Part shown: positions 7,612 through 47,601 of the stretch, piece after piece
How positions within the stretch are numbered: the first letter of the stretch is position 1
How the letters are laid out: every line of letters begins with the position of its first letter
Assembly: GCA_016190145.1 (NCBI GenBank)
Contig: JACPRD010000130.1
Span: forward strand, 6,528-70,527
Origin: Planctomycetota bacterium
Lineage (GTDB): Bacteria > Planctomycetota > MHYJ01 > WSZJ01
Length of the DNA: 64,000 nucleotides
Reading direction: 5' to 3'
Notes under the pieces: model-generated
Seen by the model: the letters and a program-made list of their open reading frames with translations, nothing else
What the model was told of the DNA's origin: nothing
Databases searched by the model: none
Translations under genes and position numbers: made by a program

Positions 7612-8166
7612 ATGGCGCTGGAAGAACTGTTCTTCTCCGTCGACGTCGAAGCGAGCGGCCCGATCCCGGCGGAGTACAGCCTGCTCTCCATCGGCTGCGC
7701 CCTCGTGGGCCGCCCCGAGGCGACCTTCTACGCGGAACTCAAACCGGTCAACGGCAACGCCGTCCCCGAGGCGCTCAAGGTCGCCGGCCTCGACATGGAG
7801 AAACTCCGCGAGAAGGGCGAAGAGCCCGCGGCCGCCATGAAACGCTTCGCCGCCTGGATCAGGGAAACCTGCGGCGCCACCCACCGCCCCGTCTTCGCCG
7901 CGTTCAACGCGACGTTTGACTGGATGTTCGTGCACTGGTACTTCGTCAAGTTCACCGGCGCAAGCCCCTTCTCCATCAGCGGACTCGACATGAAGGCCTA
8001 CTACATGGGGATGATGGGCACCGGCTGGGGCGGCACGAAGAAGGAGCACGTGACGAAGAAGTTCCCGACGAAGGCGCAGCACACGCACAATGCGCTCGAC
8101 GACGCGAAGGAGCAGGCGGAGCTGTTCGGGCAGATGCTCGAGTATCAGAAGTTGCGCAAGGGGTGA
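7612..8166 (+). CDS. DEDDh-type 3'-5' exonuclease
   Basis: 184-aa ORF. Exo I FSVDVEASGP, Exo II FNATFDWMF, Exo III HNALDDAKEQA. Confidence 0.7.
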   Translation: MALEELFFSVDVEASGPIPAEYSLLSIGCALVGRPEATFYAELKPVNGNAVPEALKVAGLDMEKLREKGEEPAAAMKRFAAWIRETCGATHRPVFAAFNATFDWMFVHWYFVKFTGASPFSISGLDMKAYYMGMMGTGWGGTKKEHVTKKFPTKAQHTHNALDDAKEQAELFGQMLEYQKLRKG

Positions 8167-8217
8167 CGGTCGGGCGGTTCGGAGTTCGGAGTTCGGCGTT
8201 CGGCGTTGACGGTCGGG
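8164..8217. repeat. GTTCGGN heptamer tandem repeat flanked by direct repeat TGACGGTCGGG
   Basis: Four full GTTCGG(A/C) units at 8177-8204, plus a partial one. TGACGGTCGGG occurs at 8164-8174 and 8207-8217. Fills the gap between convergent genes. Confidence 0.7.
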
Positions 8218-8218
8218 C

Positions 8219-8539
8219 TCAGGATTTCCGCAATTGGCGGACGGCGTCGGCCAGGTTGCGGCGCGCGGGCGCTTCGAGCCTGGCGTGGAAGTGGTCGGTC
8301 AGATAGAGGCGCGGCCGGGCGAGGAAACCTTCGAGCAGCTCGGCGCGCTTGCGGCGGAAGAGCAGGCCTGGGACCAGTCGGTACTCTCGCCGGATCGCGG
8401 TTTCGTAGCGGCGGTACGCCTCCGGATCCGCCCCCAGGATCCCCAGGTCGATGTCCACCAACCACCGCGCGTCCGGGTCGGACGGCGCCTCCGCATGCCG
8501 CGTCGCCAGGATGAGCGCGACCACGCGCCCGACCGTCAC
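8219..8539 (-). CDS. C-terminal fragment of an HD-superfamily (COG4339-like) protein; possibly a truncated remnant
   Basis: Only the last 107 codons of ORF 8219..9244 look protein-like (VVALILATRHAE...WLVDIDLGILGADPEAYRRYETAIRREYRLVP...). The H..HD catalytic N-terminal half is absent. GTG 8539 overlaps the upstream TGA (GTGA). Confidence 0.4.
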   Translation of the reverse strand: MTVGRVVALILATRHAEAPSDPDARWLVDIDLGILGADPEAYRRYETAIRREYRLVPGLLFRRKRAELLEGFLARPRLYLTDHFHARLEAPARRNLADAVRQLRKS

Positions 8540-39808: not shown

Positions 39809-39966
39809 GTTTCGTGCCTCGTGCTTCGTGCCTCGTTCCGAGACCCCGACTCCAAGGAATGGGGGAGCTCCGTAGTTTAGGGTGGTGCGCCGGAAAGATC
39901 AACCAATACCGGACTTAGGGGCGTCGCGATCCGGACGGATCAACGCCCCGGACTCCCCGGCCCCGC

Positions 39967-41001: not shown

Positions 41002-41136
41002 ATCGCTTAAACGACCCACTCTCCCGGACGTTGAGGCCTTCCCGAACCCCCGATTGGCCTTGACTTTCCTGCAATCCAATCTAAATTGAAACCCCGCATA
41101 CGGGGTCTTTATTTCTCACTCGGGGGATACCGCGCG

Positions 41137-42117
41137 ATGATCATGCCGCGACTGTCCGTTGCCCTTATCCTCGGCCTTGCCCTCTCCGGCACCAGCCGGG
41201 CCGACGACGACGAGTACGCTCACGTCTCACTGCGTGAAATCCGGCACAACGCCACGTCGTTCAAGGCGACCAAGGTGGCCTTCAAGTGCCGCCTGAACAA
41301 GACCGAAAACCTCTATGCCCCGTTCTACACTCCGTTCACCCCCGACCGCTACGCCCAGGTCTCCGCCTGGGGCCCCGAGTCGCAGGTTTTCCGCGAGAAA
41401 GACCGCCTCGATCTGTTCCCCAACCTGTTCGCACGCCGGGACGCCAAGTGGCTCCCCGAACTCCTCGAGACGCCGCGCTACTCCTGGATCTATGTCTGGG
41501 GCGAAGTCGTGAACGACTTCAACGACCAGCCCTGGATCGAGATGTTCGACATCGAAGTCCTCAGCGACAAGCACTACACCGATCACTCCCTCGGAGCCGC
41601 CATCCGCGGATACGAGGCGTTCGAGACGGGCGACATGGAAGGGACGCTCGCGGAGCTCTCGCGGGTCTCCGACTACGGCCTTCCGAAGACGGACCGGTTC
41701 CACGTCGTCAAGATGAAGGCCAAGGCCGCCTGGGCGCTCGGGCGGGACGAGGAGGCGAAGCGGTCGGCGGTGCGCGGGTTGCGGATCCGGCCGCGCGACT
41801 CCGAGTTGAACGCGATCCTCGAGGGCGTCGCGCCGCGCGCGCTGCCCGAAGAGGGCGAAAAGACCGAGGGCGAAGGCGGGACGAAGGAAGGCGAAGGCGT
41901 CAAGAAGGAAGGGGAAGGTGAAGGCGAGAAGAAGGAAGGCGAGGGCGAGGGCGAGAAAAAGGACGGCGGCAGCCTGAACGAGCTGCGCGAGCGCGTCGCC
42001 CGCCTGGAACGGGAGAACGAGAAGCTCCGCCTCGAGCTCGACGCCGCGAACGAGGAACTCTCGATCTCGAAGGAAATGCCGCTTCGCGTCGCCGGCGAGG
42101 GCAAGGAAGGCCGCTAG
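41137..42117 (+). CDS. secreted protein with KKEGEGEGE low-complexity repeats and C-terminal coiled coil
   Basis: ORF 41086..42117 trimmed to ATG 41137, which gives signal peptide MIMPRLSVALILGLALSGTSRA. Confidence 0.5.
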   Translation: MIMPRLSVALILGLALSGTSRADDDEYAHVSLREIRHNATSFKATKVAFKCRLNKTENLYAPFYTPFTPDRYAQVSAWGPESQVFREKDRLDLFPNLFARRDAKWLPELLETPRYSWIYVWGEVVNDFNDQPWIEMFDIEVLSDKHYTDHSLGAAIRGYEAFETGDMEGTLAELSRVSDYGLPKTDRFHVVKMKAKAAWALGRDEEAKRSAVRGLRIRPRDSELNAILEGVAPRALPEEGEKTEGEGGTKEGEGVKKEGEGEGEKKEGEGEGEKKDGGSLNELRERVARLERENEKLRLELDAANEELSISKEMPLRVAGEGKEGR

Positions 42118-42214: not shown

Positions 42215-43510
42215 ATGTTACCCATGAGCGACGATAACCTAGTTCACTGCCCGGGCTGCCAGGCCGAGTACGACGCCACGGGGTACGACCCCGGCGACCG
42301 CTTCCAGTGCCCCTCCTGCCAGGAAATCGTGACGGTCGGCGGGGAGGCCCCTGCCGCAGCGGCGGCGGGCGGGCCGAAGGTGGCGAAGATGCCTTCGCGC
42401 GGGACGACGCGCCGGTCGCGCCCGATGGCGCCTCCGCGCGAGCGGTCGACGGCGAAGATGCGGGTGGTGAGCGACGCCGTGGGGATGGGGGCGCTCAATC
42501 CGAACCTGGACCCGAAGGCGGGCCGGCGCGGGGTGGGGACGCCGCCGGCGGCGAATCAGGGCCCGGACAAGACGATGATGATCGTCGCGGCGGTCCTGGG
42601 CGGGATCATGATCCTGGGCGCGGTGATCTACCTGGCGAAGCAGCCGAGCAAGGAGGACAAGAAGAAGGCCGCGGTCGAAGCCGCGCGGAAGGAACAGGAG
42701 AAGAAGAACAAGGCGGAGGCGGACAAACCCAACGCGGGTACGACCGGCGAAACGTCGAAGCCGCCGCCGACCAAGACCGGGTGGGACCTGGACTCGAAGA
42801 TCGAGGCCCACGTCAGCCAGATCCTCACGCTTCTGAAGTCGCATCCCGTCGACTCCGTGTTCTGGAAGACGGCGGCGCCTCTGCTCCAGTACGGGCGCGA
42901 AGCGATCCCGCCGCTCGTCGAGCGGTGGACCGACACGGATGCGGAGATCGCGATGGCGTCGCGGACGATCGTGGAGAGGGCGACGAAGAAGTCCCTGCCG
43001 GAGGAGCTTTTTGCGACGGTGACGCATCGGGCCGCGATGCTGGCGGAATTCCGGACGTGGTGGCTGACGACCGGCGTGAATGCGCAGCTGGTGAGCGAGG
43101 CTGAGTTCCTCGGGGGCGCTTCCGAATCCCCCGGTCCAGGCCCGGGTCCCGGCCCCGGGCCCGGGCCCAGGCCCGACGGCGTCGGCGGACCTCCCAAGCC
43201 GGTCGGCGGGGGAACGTCGGAGGCCGCGATGCGGCGCGATCTGCCGCAGCACCTGGCCAACTACGCGACCGGGACGGGCGAGCAGCGGGACCAGGTGATC
43301 GTCGAGGTACGGAAGTACGGAAAGGCGGTGATTCCGGCGCTGATCGGCTACCTGAAGAGCGAAGACTACGGCTGGGGGAAGGCGGCGAACTCGCTGCTGG
43401 AGCAGTTCACGAAGCAGCAGATGGGGACCCTGCCGTCCGAGGGGCGCGAGGCGTTCATCAAGAAGTGGGAAGACTGGTGGACGGCGAACCAGGCGACGTT
43501 TTCGATGTGA
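42215..43510 (+). CDS. zinc-ribbon / single-TM protein with HEAT-like C-terminal region
   Basis: 431-aa ORF. N-terminus CPGC...CPSC, TM segment MMIVAAVLGGIMILGAVIYL, Lys-rich linker. Confidence 0.5.
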   Translation: MLPMSDDNLVHCPGCQAEYDATGYDPGDRFQCPSCQEIVTVGGEAPAAAAAGGPKVAKMPSRGTTRRSRPMAPPRERSTAKMRVVSDAVGMGALNPNLDPKAGRRGVGTPPAANQGPDKTMMIVAAVLGGIMILGAVIYLAKQPSKEDKKKAAVEAARKEQEKKNKAEADKPNAGTTGETSKPPPTKTGWDLDSKIEAHVSQILTLLKSHPVDSVFWKTAAPLLQYGREAIPPLVERWTDTDAEIAMASRTIVERATKKSLPEELFATVTHRAAMLAEFRTWWLTTGVNAQLVSEAEFLGGASESPGPGPGPGPGPGPRPDGVGGPPKPVGGGTSEAAMRRDLPQHLANYATGTGEQRDQVIVEVRKYGKAVIPALIGYLKSEDYGWGKAANSLLEQFTKQQMGTLPSEGREAFIKKWEDWWTANQATFSM

Positions 43511-43610
43511 GTGGCCTGTGACCAGTTGCCTGTGACCAGTTGCCTGTGACCAGTTGCCAGTGACCAGTTGCCAGTGACCAGTTGCCAGTGACCAGTTGCC
43601 AGTGACCAGC
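43511..43610. repeat. tandem 14-nt repeat (T/A)GTGACCAGTTGCC, about 6.7 copies (reverse-complement heptamer pairs)
   Basis: Units start at 43517, 43531, 43545, 43559, 43573 and 43587, with a partial at 43601. Begins immediately after the stop codon at 43510. Confidence 0.9.
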
Positions 43611-43670
43611 ATGCAGTGAACAGGGCAGGACCAGGACTTACCCGCAGCTTCCGGCTGGTCAATTTTCCTT

Positions 43671-43775
43671 GTCACTGGCCACTGGCCACTGGCAACTGGC
43701 CACTGGCCACTGGCCACTGGTCACTGGCCACTGGTCACTGGCCACTGGCCACTGGTAACTGGTAACTGGTAACTG
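43671..43775. repeat. tandem heptamer repeat (C/A)ACTGG(C/T), 15 copies, inverted relative to 43511-43610
   Basis: GTCACTGGCCACTGGCCACTGGCAACTGG...TAACTGGTAACTG. Ends 1 nt before the stop codon of the ABC permease (43777). Confidence 0.9.
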
Positions 43776-43776
43776 T

Positions 43777-45216
43777 CTACAGGCTCCGGAGGGCTTCTAC
43801 AGGGTCGAGCCTCGCCGCCCGGAACGCAGGGTAGAGGCCCGCGATGACGGCGACGACCACGGCGAAGGCGAGCGTCGCGCCCGCCAGCGCGGGGGAGACG
43901 AGGAAAAGGCTGACGTCCTCGGGGCCGCCGCGCTGCTTCACGAACCACTGCGCGAGTTCGTTCAGGCCCTGGCCGAACGCCCAGCCGATCGCAATGCCCA
44001 GGACGGCGCCGAGGAAGCCGATCGCGGCCGCCTCGAGGAGAAACAGCCGCCGGATTTCGCGGTTGCGCGCGCCGAGGGCCTTCATGATGCCGATTTCGCG
44101 CGTCCGCTCGAGAATCGCCATCACCATCGTGTTGGCGATGCCGAAGAACGAGACGATGAGCCCGATCGAGGCGACGGCGCCGAGCACCGCCTGGAGGGTC
44201 ACGAAAACGTAGCCGATGACTTCGACGATGTCGTTGATCGTGAGCGTCCCGTACCCCATCGACTCGAGATCGCGGCGGACGGCGTCCGTCTGCGAGGCGT
44301 CGGCGACCTTGACGATCAGTGCCTGGTAACCGGCATCGGCCCCCGCGGCGCGCGCGCCCCGATATTTCGCCAGTTCCTTGCCGTGCGAGAGCGGGATGAA
44401 TACCGCGGGCGCCCAGGGCATGCCGATGTTCCGACTGTCGTAGACGCCCACGATGCGGTAGCGGCGCGTGACCTTCTTCGTCCGGACTTCCTCGTCCTTC
44501 TCCTCTTCCGGATCCGGCTCCTCCCCCTCCTTCGGCGGGTCCTTCGCTTCCTCCGTCGTCACCGGCATGTTGAACGTCAGCTTCACCGACTTCCCGATCA
44601 CCGCGTTCCACACCGGGTCGCCCTTCGCAGGGTCCAGCTCCCCCCCGTCGGCGGTCGTGAAACGCTTCACAAGCCCCATGTCCAGCACCGCGTCCGCCGG
44701 AACGACGGCGAGTCGCTCTTCCGTCGCGTCCCCGGTCCAGAAGCCGCCGGCGACGAGAGAGGCGCGGTAGAGGGGGGTCATTCCGGACTCGGGAAGCCCG
44801 ACGAATTCCACGTTCTGGCCCAGGACGTCCTTCTTCTTGCCGTCGACCTCCGACTCGATCATGAGGCGCGAGAACACGTTGATGGCGGGGTATACGGTCG
44901 CGATCCCGGGCCGGACGCGCAGTTCCTCGATGACCGCGTCGTCGAGTTTTTTAGAAGGGCCGCCGAGGGGGCGGCCGAAGTTCATGAAGTTGCGGCTGCG
45001 TTTCTGGGGGAAGACGCGGATGGTGGTGAGGTAATCGACCTGGTTGAAGAACTCGACGGTCTGGGCCTGGAGGCCGATGCCGAGGGAGACCATGAGGACG
45101 ATGGCGCCGGTGCCGACGACGACGCCGAAGACGGTAAGGAGGGTGCGGACTTTCTGGCGGCCGAGGCTGCCGAAGGAATAGCGGAACAGGTCGGCCGCGC
45201 GCATGGTGCCGCTCAT
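43777..45216 (-). CDS. ABC transporter permease, FtsX/MacB-like
   Basis: 479-aa ORF. N-terminal TM helix, large periplasmic domain, C-terminal three-TM FtsX-like module (...REIGIMKALGARNREI...). Confidence 0.8.
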   Translation of the reverse strand: MSGTMRAADLFRYSFGSLGRQKVRTLLTVFGVVVGTGAIVLMVSLGIGLQAQTVEFFNQVDYLTTIRVFPQKRSRNFMNFGRPLGGPSKKLDDAVIEELRVRPGIATVYPAINVFSRLMIESEVDGKKKDVLGQNVEFVGLPESGMTPLYRASLVAGGFWTGDATEERLAVVPADAVLDMGLVKRFTTADGGELDPAKGDPVWNAVIGKSVKLTFNMPVTTEEAKDPPKEGEEPDPEEEKDEEVRTKKVTRRYRIVGVYDSRNIGMPWAPAVFIPLSHGKELAKYRGARAAGADAGYQALIVKVADASQTDAVRRDLESMGYGTLTINDIVEVIGYVFVTLQAVLGAVASIGLIVSFFGIANTMVMAILERTREIGIMKALGARNREIRRLFLLEAAAIGFLGAVLGIAIGWAFGQGLNELAQWFVKQRGGPEDVSLFLVSPALAGATLAFAVVVAVIAGLYPAFRAARLDPVEALRSL

Positions 45217-45941
45217 CGCGGGGTCTCCGGAAGGGCCGCGACGGCGGCCGAGTCGAAGACGATCCGGCCGTCCCTGAGCTCGACGACGCGCCGGCAGCAG
45301 GAGTCGGCCAGCGGGCGCTCGTGCGTCACGAGGAGAATGGTCTGGCCCTCCTCGTTCGTGCGGCGCAGGAGATCCATCACGCTTCCCGCGGTCGCCGAGT
45401 CGAGATTCCCCGTCGGTTCGTCGGCCAGGAGGATCGCAGGGCGGTTCGCCATCGCGCGCGCGATCGCGACGCGCTGCTGCTCGCCGCCGGAAAGCTCCGT
45501 CGGGCGGTGGCCGCTTCGCGGACCCAGCGCGACCTTCTCCAGCAGTTCCTCCGCGCGGCGGCGGCGGACGGCCGGCGCGACGCCCGCGAAGACGAGGGGG
45601 AGTTCGACGTTCTGAAGGGCCGTCATGGAGGGGATGAGGTTGAACTGCTGGAAGATGAAGCCGACTTTCTCGCGGCGGTAGCGGGCGAGGGTGTCGGTAT
45701 CCGCGTCGGTGATGAGGGTGCCGCCGATTTCGACCGAGCCGGAGGAAGGGGTATCCAGGCCGCCGAGGAGGTTCAGGAGGGTCGATTTCCCGGAGCCGGA
45801 GCGGCCGACGATGCCGAAGAACGCGCCTTCTTCGACCTCAAGGTTCAGCCGGTCGAGCGCCGTGACGATTCCCCCGCCCATGCGGTAGACGCGCGTGAGG
45901 TCGCGGGTGCGGACGATGGGCGATCGGGGAGACGTATCCAA
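45213..45941 (-). CDS. ABC transporter ATP-binding protein (MacB/LolD-like)
   Basis: 242-aa ORF with apparent TTG start at 45941. Walker A GRSGSGKST, signature LSGGEQQR, Walker B ILLADEPT. 4-nt overlap with the permease gene. Confidence 0.85.
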   Translation of the reverse strand: MDTSPRSPIVRTRDLTRVYRMGGGIVTALDRLNLEVEEGAFFGIVGRSGSGKSTLLNLLGGLDTPSSGSVEIGGTLITDADTDTLARYRREKVGFIFQQFNLIPSMTALQNVELPLVFAGVAPAVRRRRAEELLEKVALGPRSGHRPTELSGGEQQRVAIARAMANRPAILLADEPTGNLDSATAGSVMDLLRRTNEEGQTILLVTHERPLADSCCRRVVELRDGRIVFDSAAVAALPETPR

Positions 45942-45963
45942 GTCATTGGAATTCTAACAGCGG

Positions 45964-45997
45964 GTGGCCAGTTGCCGGTTGCCTGTTGCCAGTGACC
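45964..45997. repeat. degenerate CCAGTTGCC/GTGACC heptamer block (left arm of second inverted pair)
   Basis: GTGGCCAGTTGCCGGTTGCCTGTTGCCAGTGACC. Related to the 43511-43610 units. Confidence 0.7.
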
Positions 45998-46047
45998 GGC
46001 AGGCGGTTGCATCCCGGAGCGGCGAGTGGGCGGAAGCTGCAGTTCCT

Positions 46048-46079
46048 GGCCACTGGCCACTGGCAACAGGCCACTGGCC
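46048..46079. repeat. CACTGGC heptamer block (right arm of second inverted pair)
   Basis: GGCCACTGGCCACTGGCAACAGGCCACTGGCC. Ends 4 nt before the stop of the GT2 gene (46084). Confidence 0.75.
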
Positions 46080-46083
46080 CTTC

Positions 46084-47601
46084 CTACGCGGAAGCCTTCT
46101 CCAGCGCCTTCGCCGCAGGAACCGGCACCGCCTTCTTCCCCGCCCCGAACGCCTGCGCGAACGAGAGGCCTGACACGTAGAAGAAGCCGATCGGGAAGAG
46201 CGCGAGGAACGGCAGCGCCCCGTACATTTCGAACTGGTACGCGAAGCCGCAGACGAAGGTGAAGTACACGCCGAACAGCAGCTCGATGACCGCGAGGACG
46301 TTCGAGCGGCCGCGGTACTTCATGCCCTTGAGCGATCCCTTGTTCCCGATGCCGTGCTTCGGCGTCCGCACGAAGCCGGTCCGGTGTCCGACGAGCGCCT
46401 CGAGCACGGCCTTGGCGTTGTTCAGGCACATCCCGACGCCCACCGCCAGCATCAGCGGGAACATCAGGAACCGGCGCATCCAGCCCTTCCCCAGCTGCTG
46501 CTCCGTGTACCCGTAGAACACGAACACGGAGAGAAACGCCGCGATGAAGACCGCGGAGTCGAGGTAGCGGAGAGTGCCGTACCAGCCCATGTCGTGCCGG
46601 ACCATCATCGAGGGCAGGATCAGGAGGCAGAGGAGCACCATGCCGAGGAACGACACGTAGTTCCCCAGGTGCTGCGTCGCCTCTAGCTTGACTTTGAGCG
46701 GCGCTTTCGATCCCCAGATCGTCGGGAGCAGCTTGAAGGCCGTCTGCACGCCGCCCTTGGCCCAGCGGTGCTGCTGCGTTTTGAACGCGTTGATGTCGCC
46801 CGGCAGCTCCGAAGGCGAAGCGAGGTCCACGAGGTACACGAACCTCCAGCCCTTGAGCTGCGAGCGGTACGACAGGTCGAGGTCCTCCGTCAGCGTGTCG
46901 TGCTCCCAGCCGCCGCCGTCCTCGATCGCCTTGCGGCGCCAGATGCCGGCGGTGCCGTTGAAATTGAAGAAGCGGCCGCTGCGGTTCCGGGCGGTGTGCT
47001 CGAGGACGAAATGCGCGTCGAGCATGATCGCCTGGATTCTCGTGAGCCAGGACCAGTCGCGGTTGATGTGCTCCCAGCGGGCCTGCACCATGCCGATGCC
47101 GGGGTCGGTGAAGAAATGGACCGTGCGATTGAGGAACTCCTTCGCGGGAAGGAAGTCCGCGTCGAAGACCGCGACGTAGTCCGCCGTCGCTTTCCGGAGT
47201 CCGTTCTCCAGCGCTCCTGCCTTGTAACCCGTGCGGTCGGTCCGGTGGATGAAATGGATGTCGAACCCCTGGGCCCGCTTCTCGGCGACCTTGCGCCGCG
47301 AGATCTCCACCGTTTCGTCCGTCGAGTCGTCGAGCACCTGGATCTCGAGCTTCTCGCGCGGATAATCCAGCTGGCAGACCGCGTCGATCAGCCGCTCGGT
47401 GACGTACATCTCGTTGTAGATGGGCAACTGGACGGTCACCCGCGGCAGATCTTCGAAGCGCGCCCTGGGCTTGGGCGCATCGTTCCGGTGGCGCCAGTAC
47501 AGCAGCACCATCAGGTACCGGTGCGCGCCGCAGAGGGCCAGCACGCCCAGGACCGAGAAGTAAAGCGCGACGACCACGATGTCGATAATGCCGACGCTCA
47601 T
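46084..47601 (-). CDS. family 2 glycosyltransferase, processive membrane-embedded (CslA/cellulose-synthase-like)
   Basis: ORF 46084..47793 trimmed to ATG 47601 (MSVGIIDIVVV...). Motifs QLPIYNE, VLDDSTD, FDADF, TEDLDLS, QQHRWAKG. C-terminal TM helices. Confidence 0.8.
   Translation of the reverse strand: MSVGIIDIVVVALYFSVLGVLALCGAHRYLMVLLYWRHRNDAPKPRARFEDLPRVTVQLPIYNEMYVTERLIDAVCQLDYPREKLEIQVLDDSTDETVEISRRKVAEKRAQGFDIHFIHRTDRTGYKAGALENGLRKATADYVAVFDADFLPAKEFLNRTVHFFTDPGIGMVQARWEHINRDWSWLTRIQAIMLDAHFVLEHTARNRSGRFFNFNGTAGIWRRKAIEDGGGWEHDTLTEDLDLSYRSQLKGWRFVYLVDLASPSELPGDINAFKTQQHRWAKGGVQTAFKLLPTIWGSKAPLKVKLEATQHLGNYVSFLGMVLLCLLILPSMMVRHDMGWYGTLRYLDSAVFIAAFLSVFVFYGYTEQQLGKGWMRRFLMFPLMLAVGVGMCLNNAKAVLEALVGHRTGFVRTPKHGIGNKGSLKGMKYRGRSNVLAVIELLFGVYFTFVCGFAYQFEMYGALPFLALFPIGFFYVSGLSFAQAFGAGKKAVPVPAAKALEKASA

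Follow-up and report, generated by a model that had tools for sequence, protein, structure and literature searches.

An inverted pair of long heptamer arrays between two convergent genes of a Planctomycetota bacterium, a putative gene-less relative of PF05635 cassettes

Structure of the element

The window, i.e., the whole stretch of 64,000 nucleotides that was analysed, contains a convergent gene pair whose gap is spanned from stop to stop by two inverted arrays of tandem heptamers (43511-43776). The upstream gene (42215..43510, + strand) encodes a protein of 431 aa without a Pfam family and ends with a TGA at 43508-43510. The opposite gene (43777..45216, - strand) encodes a MacB/FtsX-type ABC permease (PF02687, PF12704), and its stop codon is the complement of 43777-43779. 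In the assembly, a short-read MAG of 217 contigs from which all arm copy numbers are taken, the left arm (43511-43609) consists of 14 CCAGTKR heptamers, equal to 7.1 copies of a 14-mer. TRF reports this array at 43510-43609 with period 14, 7.1 copies and 97% matches. It is followed by a spacer of 63 nt (43610-43672), which is single-copy in the genome, and by a right arm (43673-43776) of about 15 YMACTGG heptamers, mostly CACTGGC with AACTGGT toward the outer end. The right array was detected by TRF at 43673-43755 (period 7, 11.9 copies) and at 43674-43769 with period 21; by eye it extends to 43776 and comprises about 14.9 units, the terminal one being degenerate (AACTGTC). An earlier sequence-only reading had given 6.7 copies of the 14-mer, a spacer of 60 nt and 15 right-hand heptamers ending 1 nt before the permease stop. 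This description was confirmed, with a spacer of 63 instead of 60 nt and with both arrays abutting stop codons.

The 14-mer is the reverse complement of AACTGGT plus CACTGGC, as the same reading had noticed. The inverted arms of 100-114 nt are 78-83% complementary, and the proposed hairpin or cruciform, with a paired length of about 100 bp, is supported by this complementarity and by the predicted folds. As RNA, the region folds with -182.7 kcal/mol on the + strand and -184.5 kcal/mol on the - strand (z = -12.0 for both), and as DNA with -100 (z = -11.4). With at most one mismatch, CACTGGYCACTGG occurs 21 times in the window vs. 0.06 expected occurrences. Five of the seven heptamer positions are conserved and two are variable in the CCAGTKR and YMACTGG units. 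Since GGG runs are absent from either arm, a G-quadruplex is not expected. At one position, the first three 14-mers of the left arm carry a T and the last four an A, a split that points to block duplication, and the order of units in the right arm is not the mirror image of the left arm. ORFs extending across the arrays are spurious, in agreement with the earlier reading. Its suggestion of a phase-variation hotspot was not upheld: the arrays are bounded by a stop codon on either side, and a change in their length alters neither a reading frame nor a promoter spacing.

The spacer contains a small hairpin at about 43630-43659 (inner stem 43645-43657), which is followed by AATTTTCCTT. Together they form a weak terminator-like site with a 5-bp stem that could serve the + strand gene only.

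Further heptamer arrays were found in the window. A second element, which is small but agrees in heptamer family and polarity with the first, occupies 45963..46079, with a spacer of 48 nt separating its left (45963-45997) and right (46046-46079) arms. Its neighbours are an ABC ATPase gene, whose start is at 45941, and a GT2 glycosyltransferase gene, whose stop is at 46084. A solo GTTCGGM array of standard size with 4.4 units (8177..8207) lies directly 3′ of a stop codon and is framed at 8164-8219 (C89:14691-14746 in the genome) by a perfect 12-nt direct repeat, TGACGGTCGGGC, which includes the stop codon. This repeat looks like a duplication made by an insertion; a comparable one, of 10 nt, was found at just one other locus (C195:3316). 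A third family is represented by a solo TCGTGCC array of 3.6 units in a co-directional gap (39812..39836), and the syntenic gap of the congener G005 contains a 150-nt CCAGCGG/CGAGTGG array. Apart from the heptamers, an imperfect GAAGGCGAGAAGAAG-type repeat with periods of 15-27 lies at 41854-41968 within the ORF 41086-42117 and would encode a low-complexity stretch rich in Glu, Lys and Gly.

Heptamer arrays in the genome

The genome represents an uncultured genus (Planctomycetota/Planctomycetia) and is a draft of 5.35 Mb with a G + C content of 68% in 217 contigs and about 85% complete. In total, 628 true period-7 arrays at 486 loci were detected with TRF. They belong to at least five families: GTTCGGM (family A, ~150 arrays), AAGCCAT (family B, ~104), CTCGTTY/CGTGCTT (~170), AATTTTG/AATTATG (family D, ~74), which is AT-rich inside a GC-rich genome, and CCAGTKR (family E, ~50). 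About 33 further loci of the CCAGTKR family show the same architecture as the element at 43511-43776.

Arrays less than 300-400 nt apart nearly always belong to one family and are inverted. For roughly half of the arrays, an inverted partner lies no more than 300 nt away, vs. 6-8% of the occurrences of a control motif. The arm order is constant within each family, without exception in 289 arms (16 of 16 in the CCAGTKR family). A rule that the G/T-rich arm comes first was considered and rejected, as it is a tendency only (92 of 130 left arms) and is violated by the AAGCCAT family. Of 100 spacers between paired arms, 75 have no second copy in the genome, those of the CCAGT family included.

The median array length is 32 nt, and the copy at 43511-43776 belongs to the 99th percentile. 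The GTTCGGM and AATTTTG families have a sharp mode of four full cores plus a partial fifth, and the unit number of the CCAGT family ranges broadly from 2 to 21. In family B, nested palindromes are combined around a conserved interior (22 copies), and in family D both the inner stems and the outer GAAGGGC/GCCCTTC flanks are conserved. AAGCCAT elements include a longer inner stem as well as two small GGCGCGCTTCGCGCGCC hairpins, and AATTTTG elements are nested within degenerate GAAGGGC/GCCCTTC arrays. The resulting layered palindromes (e.g., C104:22537-22639 and C2:18351-18460 elsewhere in the genome) combine several repeat families, the order of which is constant.

Of the 486 heptamer loci, 38 are found no more than 150 nt from the end of a contig, and the heptamer repeats are probably a main cause of assembly breaks in this MAG.

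Position relative to genes

The positions of the loci refer to a gene set of 3935 genes (85% coding) that was predicted with a home-made caller. The sequence-only reading had suggested a genome search for the relation of the arrays to gene ends: 94% of the 486 loci are intergenic, and the outer sides of the arrays lie against gene ends, mostly at stops. The loci are distributed over 240 co-directional, 93 convergent and 76 divergent gaps, with a mild enrichment in convergent gaps (23% vs. 16-19% background). In co-directional gaps, the elements have a median distance of 20 nt to the upstream stop and 75 nt to the next start codon. In 147 of 196 solo arrays, it is the "outer" side that is turned toward the nearest gene. 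For solo arrays whose nearest gene end is a stop codon, the number is 91 of 104, at a median distance of 9.5-21 nt. The stop-to-stop filling at 43511-43776 is therefore an extreme case of a general rule.

It was also considered whether whole genes are bracketed by arrays as a unit. Loci that are 300-3000 nt apart share their family at a rate of 0.30-0.35 vs. 0.24 by chance, a slight excess, and this idea was dropped. The genes located between same-family left and right arrays at this distance are ordinary housekeeping genes, with the exception of PF05635 genes.

PF05635 genes enclosed by inverted arrays

The genome contains seven genes of the family PF05635 (23S rRNA intervening-sequence protein, S23p), and all seven lie between inverted short-unit tandem arrays in cassettes of lower G + C content. 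These are found at C16:34021-34874, C195:9381-10247, C176:4587-5060, C51:7560-8130, C115:9759-10390, C172:30180-30640 and C106:1560-1990. In the C16 cassette, CGAGTGG/CCAGTGG arms of 146 and 89 nt surround 620 nt of lower-GC DNA with a consensus-like promoter and a PF05635 ORF of 156 aa, whose product matches PDB entry 2GSC at E = 1e-25. The seven cassettes have seven different arm units, namely heptamers, one octamer (GGCGGAAG) and one unit of about 13 nt. The arm families of three cassettes are the large gene-less families CCAGTGG, GTTCGGM and AATTTTG. Alignment of the two flanks gave scores of 30-84 for the PF05635 genes vs. a 95th percentile of 28 and a 99th percentile of 31 for 276 other short genes.

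In seven congeners, 23 of the 25 testable PF05635 genes are flanked by inverted arrays. In a tree of the PF05635 proteins, clades tend to share arm types, a correspondence that may reflect co-inheritance and not recognition. The C176 gene (AATTTTG arms) and a gene of the congener G004 (AATATCA arms) belong to one starred clade together with the C106 gene, and the C176 and G004 genes are located in neighbouring syntenic gaps. The congener G002 has a PF05635 cassette with GGGCGAGC arms near the orthologous permease gene.

The element at 43511-43776 carries no PF05635 ORF in the 63-nt spacer between its arms, and it lies between protein-coding genes and not in a 23S rRNA helix. A six-frame profile search of the spacers and flanks of all loci revealed no PF05635 remnant beyond the known genes. 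Together with the unique spacers (75 of 100), this argues that the gene-less pairs are not simply decayed cassettes. A plain copy-and-paste MITE model likewise does not account for arms that flank native intergenic DNA.

A sigma-70-like AT-rich stretch (TTGAC..N17..TATAGT/TATGAT) was observed just inside the left arm of PF05635 cassettes, in the C16 cassette (L054:300-411), the C195 cassette (L055:230-326) and a cassette of G002 (L076, C270:29793-29882). Such a stretch, which resembles a strong sigma-70 promoter, is unusual for a Planctomycete with 68% G + C.

Comparison with related genomes

The CCAGTKR pattern has 170 matches in the genome studied here, 11 in one congener and two in one other relative, and it is absent from the remaining 28 relatives. 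The congeners have a similar array density with other heptamers. The heptamer families turn over fast between congeners. With protein identities of about 62-68%, the congeners are too distant for insertion polymorphisms to be read, and a metagenome scan with the upstream-gene protein found no closer strain. Among 48 syntenic gaps, arrays are present in both this genome and the congener in two, only in this genome in 11 and only in the congener in three, where the co-occurrence is a lower bound since short or degenerate arrays were missed by the detector.

Orthologues of the upstream gene adjoin the permease gene in congeners, and a clear hairpin with a T-run is found 3′ of them. The orthologous convergent gap contains CCAGTGG/CGAGCGG arms of the same polarity as in our genome in G006, GTACGCG arms around a terminator in G001 and gene-less GGGCGGGC arms around a bidirectional terminator in G004. 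In G003 and G005, a two-gene module without arrays is inserted. This module beside the permease gene was seen in three congeners (G003, L009:2928-3744; G005, L010:2946-3783; G002, C270:29020-29705) and by eye has the look of a VapBC-type toxin-antitoxin system; in G002 the PF05635 cassette adjoins it. The gap on the permease side seems to be an insertion hot spot.

No match to a Y1/RAYT transposase (PF01797) of the IS200 type was found in the 85%-complete assembly, and no transposase is located between arms or linked to the arrays. Flanking direct repeats are barely above control; apart from the two cases of 10-12 nt, no consistent target-site duplication was found.

Origin and effect of the element

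Inverted heptamer-array hairpins at gene ends are a known but unexplained kind of element. The arms at 43511-43776 are of the same CCAGTGG-type family as those around the C16 PF05635 gene. The element is best explained, with a probability of roughly 0.6, as an exceptionally long, gene-less and slippage-expanded relative of the IVS-like PF05635 cassettes within a dispersed palindromic class. Its arms would have been seeded by the spread of IVS-like cassette arms via a transposase-free mechanism. Each arm would then have been lengthened independently by replication slippage until both stop codons were reached, beyond which selection on the coding sequences would block further growth. Independent slippage in each arm is indicated by the T/A blocks of the 14-mers and by the differing unit order of the two arms.

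The central hairpin and T-run would represent the upstream gene's own terminator. A convergent transcript that reads into the element would fold into a stem of about 100 bp, and RNase III, whose gene is present in the genome, could cut this stem and set the 3′ ends of both mRNAs, by analogy with the stems of S23p-bearing IVS. From this analogy, RNase III cutting of read-through transcripts is the likely molecular effect of the element. On this reading, it would be chiefly selfish or structural DNA that affects mRNA ends as a by-product, and not a purpose-built terminator.

Among the alternatives, local microsatellite growth fares best, though we consider it unlikely. Here, a heptamer would have been duplicated beside a terminator hairpin, expanded by slippage and mirrored by intrastrand template switching (quasipalindrome correction), with neither mobility nor a link to a protein. 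The independent higher-order patterns of the two arms, the broad length range of the CCAGT family and the mostly unique spacers would fit such an origin, and so would the orthologous gaps of G001, G004 and G006 with their other heptamer arms around a hairpin. In addition, no class of long SSRs is more frequent in bacteria than heptamers according to Mrazek (2007), as cited in PMC4679880. Local growth does not account, however, for a few families that recur at hundreds of loci with a polarity of 289:0, for an arm size that families A and D keep sharply at 4.5 units, for the conserved inner stems and outer flanks of families B and D, or for the enclosure of every PF05635 gene in the genome by such arms.

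Slightly less probable still are arrays of binding sites on DNA or RNA, with the pentameric PF05635 protein as candidate reader, that would act as a boundary or insulator or as the ends of a protein-mobilised cassette. This explanation overlaps with the cassette-relative reading and would supply its missing mechanism. The cores of a standard arm number five (AATT x5 for family D, NGTT x5 for family A), and the related structure 2GSC has five chains and is described as a homopentamer. The conservation of only five of the seven unit positions, the strict polarity, the different arm family at each of the seven PF05635 genes and the arm types common to protein clades point in the same direction. 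On the other hand, the two largest gene-less families, B and C, have no arm-matched PF05635 gene in the assembled 85% of the genome, a spacing of 7 bp is out of helical phase on duplex DNA, and the copy at 43511-43776 has 14-15 units per arm instead of five.

That the element is a purpose-built bidirectional terminator, or an RNA structure selected for the convergent gene pair, is improbable. The former had been put forward in the sequence-only reading, and the convergent position, the very stable hairpin on both strands, the mild enrichment in convergent gaps and the spacer hairpin with its T-run would agree with it. In 74 paired elements of co-directional gaps, however, neither strand has a T-run 3′ of the outer arm, and the adjoining 10 nt contain 2.0 T on each side. 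The sense strand was the more stable one in 37 elements and the antisense strand in 37, with mean folds of -82.5 vs. -82.8 kcal/mol and 205 vs. 196 G-U pairs. Because of the missing U-tract and the missing sense/antisense asymmetry, the elements are not canonical bidirectional terminators, and strand-specific selection on RNA is not indicated. In the AT-rich AATTTTG family the U-rich arm is located 5′ of the hairpin, the opposite of a terminator, and 76 loci lie in divergent gaps. A search against Rfam gave no family, only sub-threshold matches to miRNA precursors as expected for generic long hairpins.

An assembly artefact, to which the short-read MAG with its 217 contigs, the 38 loci at contig ends and the arm length of about one read might point, is very improbable, since a single 70-kb contig runs through the unique spacer and the unique flanks, the same architecture recurs at about 33 further loci of this family and hundreds from other families, and independent MAGs of congeners show the same design.

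A farther-reaching version of the cassette-relative reading is tentative and has a rather low probability. In this version, the heptamer hairpins and PF05635 genes would together form a widespread class of transposase-free mobile elements, in which the toroidal pentamer reads the five cores of a standard arm of its own family and directs copying or insertion next to gene ends, and the gene-less pairs would be non-autonomous offspring.

To our knowledge, intervening sequences of the 23S rRNA and their S23p gene have remained for more than 30 years without a known function or means of spread. Many bacterial phyla also have an unexplained excess of tandem heptamers. The present genome ties the two together by the polarity of 289:0, the location of arrays at gene ends and the enclosed PF05635 genes (7 of 7 here and 23 of 25 in congeners). 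Published data agree, as the Xanthomonas S23p gene whose product has been crystallised lies beside a GGGAATC array and the stem of the Coxiella IVS contains heptamers whose number varies between strains. No paper joining heptamer arrays, IVS and PF05635 genes was found in the literature. If the pentamer does read the arms, this would be the first function for S23p proteins and would provide an origin for the intervening sequences of 23S rRNA and for the bacterial excess of heptamer repeats. For annotation, it is relevant that the arrays yield long spurious ORFs and break short-read assemblies.

Relation to known systems

REP, BIME and REPIN sequences are extragenic palindromes that occur in hundreds of copies, mostly after the 3′ ends of genes, together with RAYT transposases. 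The elements described here resemble them in copy number, in their hairpin-forming palindromes and in their extragenic position, which is mostly 3′ of genes. They differ in that their arms are tandem arrays and not a single palindrome of 20-40 nt, no RAYT was found and their centres are mostly unique. Heptameric STRR sequences were reportedly described in cyanobacteria by Mazel in 1990.

Direct repeats of TAACTGA are known from Beggiatoaceae, cyanobacteria and Bacteroidetes (MacGregor, 2015; PMC4679880). Like the arrays in this genome, they are abundant intergenic heptamers of two to six or more units with a patchy phylogeny, and their unit is similar to the TAACTGG units found outermost in the right arm. 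Among 170 TAACTGA sets, one is an indirect repeat, and they are mostly located just upstream of start codons (PMC4679880), whereas about half of the arrays found here form inverted pairs and mostly lie after stop codons.

In Geobacter metallireducens, paired arrays of four octamers or five heptamers were described (Aklujkar et al., 2009; PMC2700814). They share with the present arrays the presence of several families, 4-5 units of 7-8 nt, the arrangement on opposite strands at variable distance, the intergenic position and the species-specific distribution. Their units are different, they were read by the authors as sites for the global regulators IHF/HU, and no link to hairpins or cassettes was described.

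The GGGAATC arrays of Xanthomonas campestris and X. citri have a modal number of four units and form 70-75 inverted pairs per genome in one orientation (Rehm et al., 2015; PMC4692102). They are intergenic in 89-93% of cases, with mean distances of 28 nt to the upstream and 160 nt to the downstream ORF, and their lengths vary between close species (PMC4692102). Common to both systems are tandem heptamers in a fixed inverted orientation and an intergenic position near the upstream 3′ end. In contrast to Xanthomonas, the arrays of this genome have another unit, no G-tracts in the arms of the element at 43511-43776, at least five families instead of one and, in this element, 14-15 units per arm. 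According to the supplement of PMC4692102, repeat 15 (X. campestris 622956-622983) adjoins XCC0516, with an overlap of 17 nt at the annotated start of this gene; the authors did not comment on an array beside this gene or on any link to PF05635. The product of this gene, the Xanthomonas S23p (Xcc0516), is a toroidal homopentamer (PMC4990558), and the corresponding PDB entry 2GSC was deposited with five chains.

The S23p-bearing IVS of Coxiella burnetii has a terminal stem of 28 bp (Warrier et al., 2016; PMC4990558). The number of its tandem GACAGAT heptamers varies between strains, and RNase III cuts at the first repeat (PMC4990558). The element at 43511-43776 shares with the IVS of Coxiella and Leptospira the inverted repeats that form a long stem and the tandem heptamers in the arm. 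These IVS encode the four-helix-bundle PF05635 protein in their interior and are regarded as selfish (PMC4990558), whereas the copy at 43511-43776 has no ORF, lies outside 23S rRNA and has arms of 100 nt instead of 28 bp. The PF05635 cassettes of the genome, such as the one at C16:34021-34874, are likewise located outside rRNA genes, unlike the IVS of 23S rRNA.
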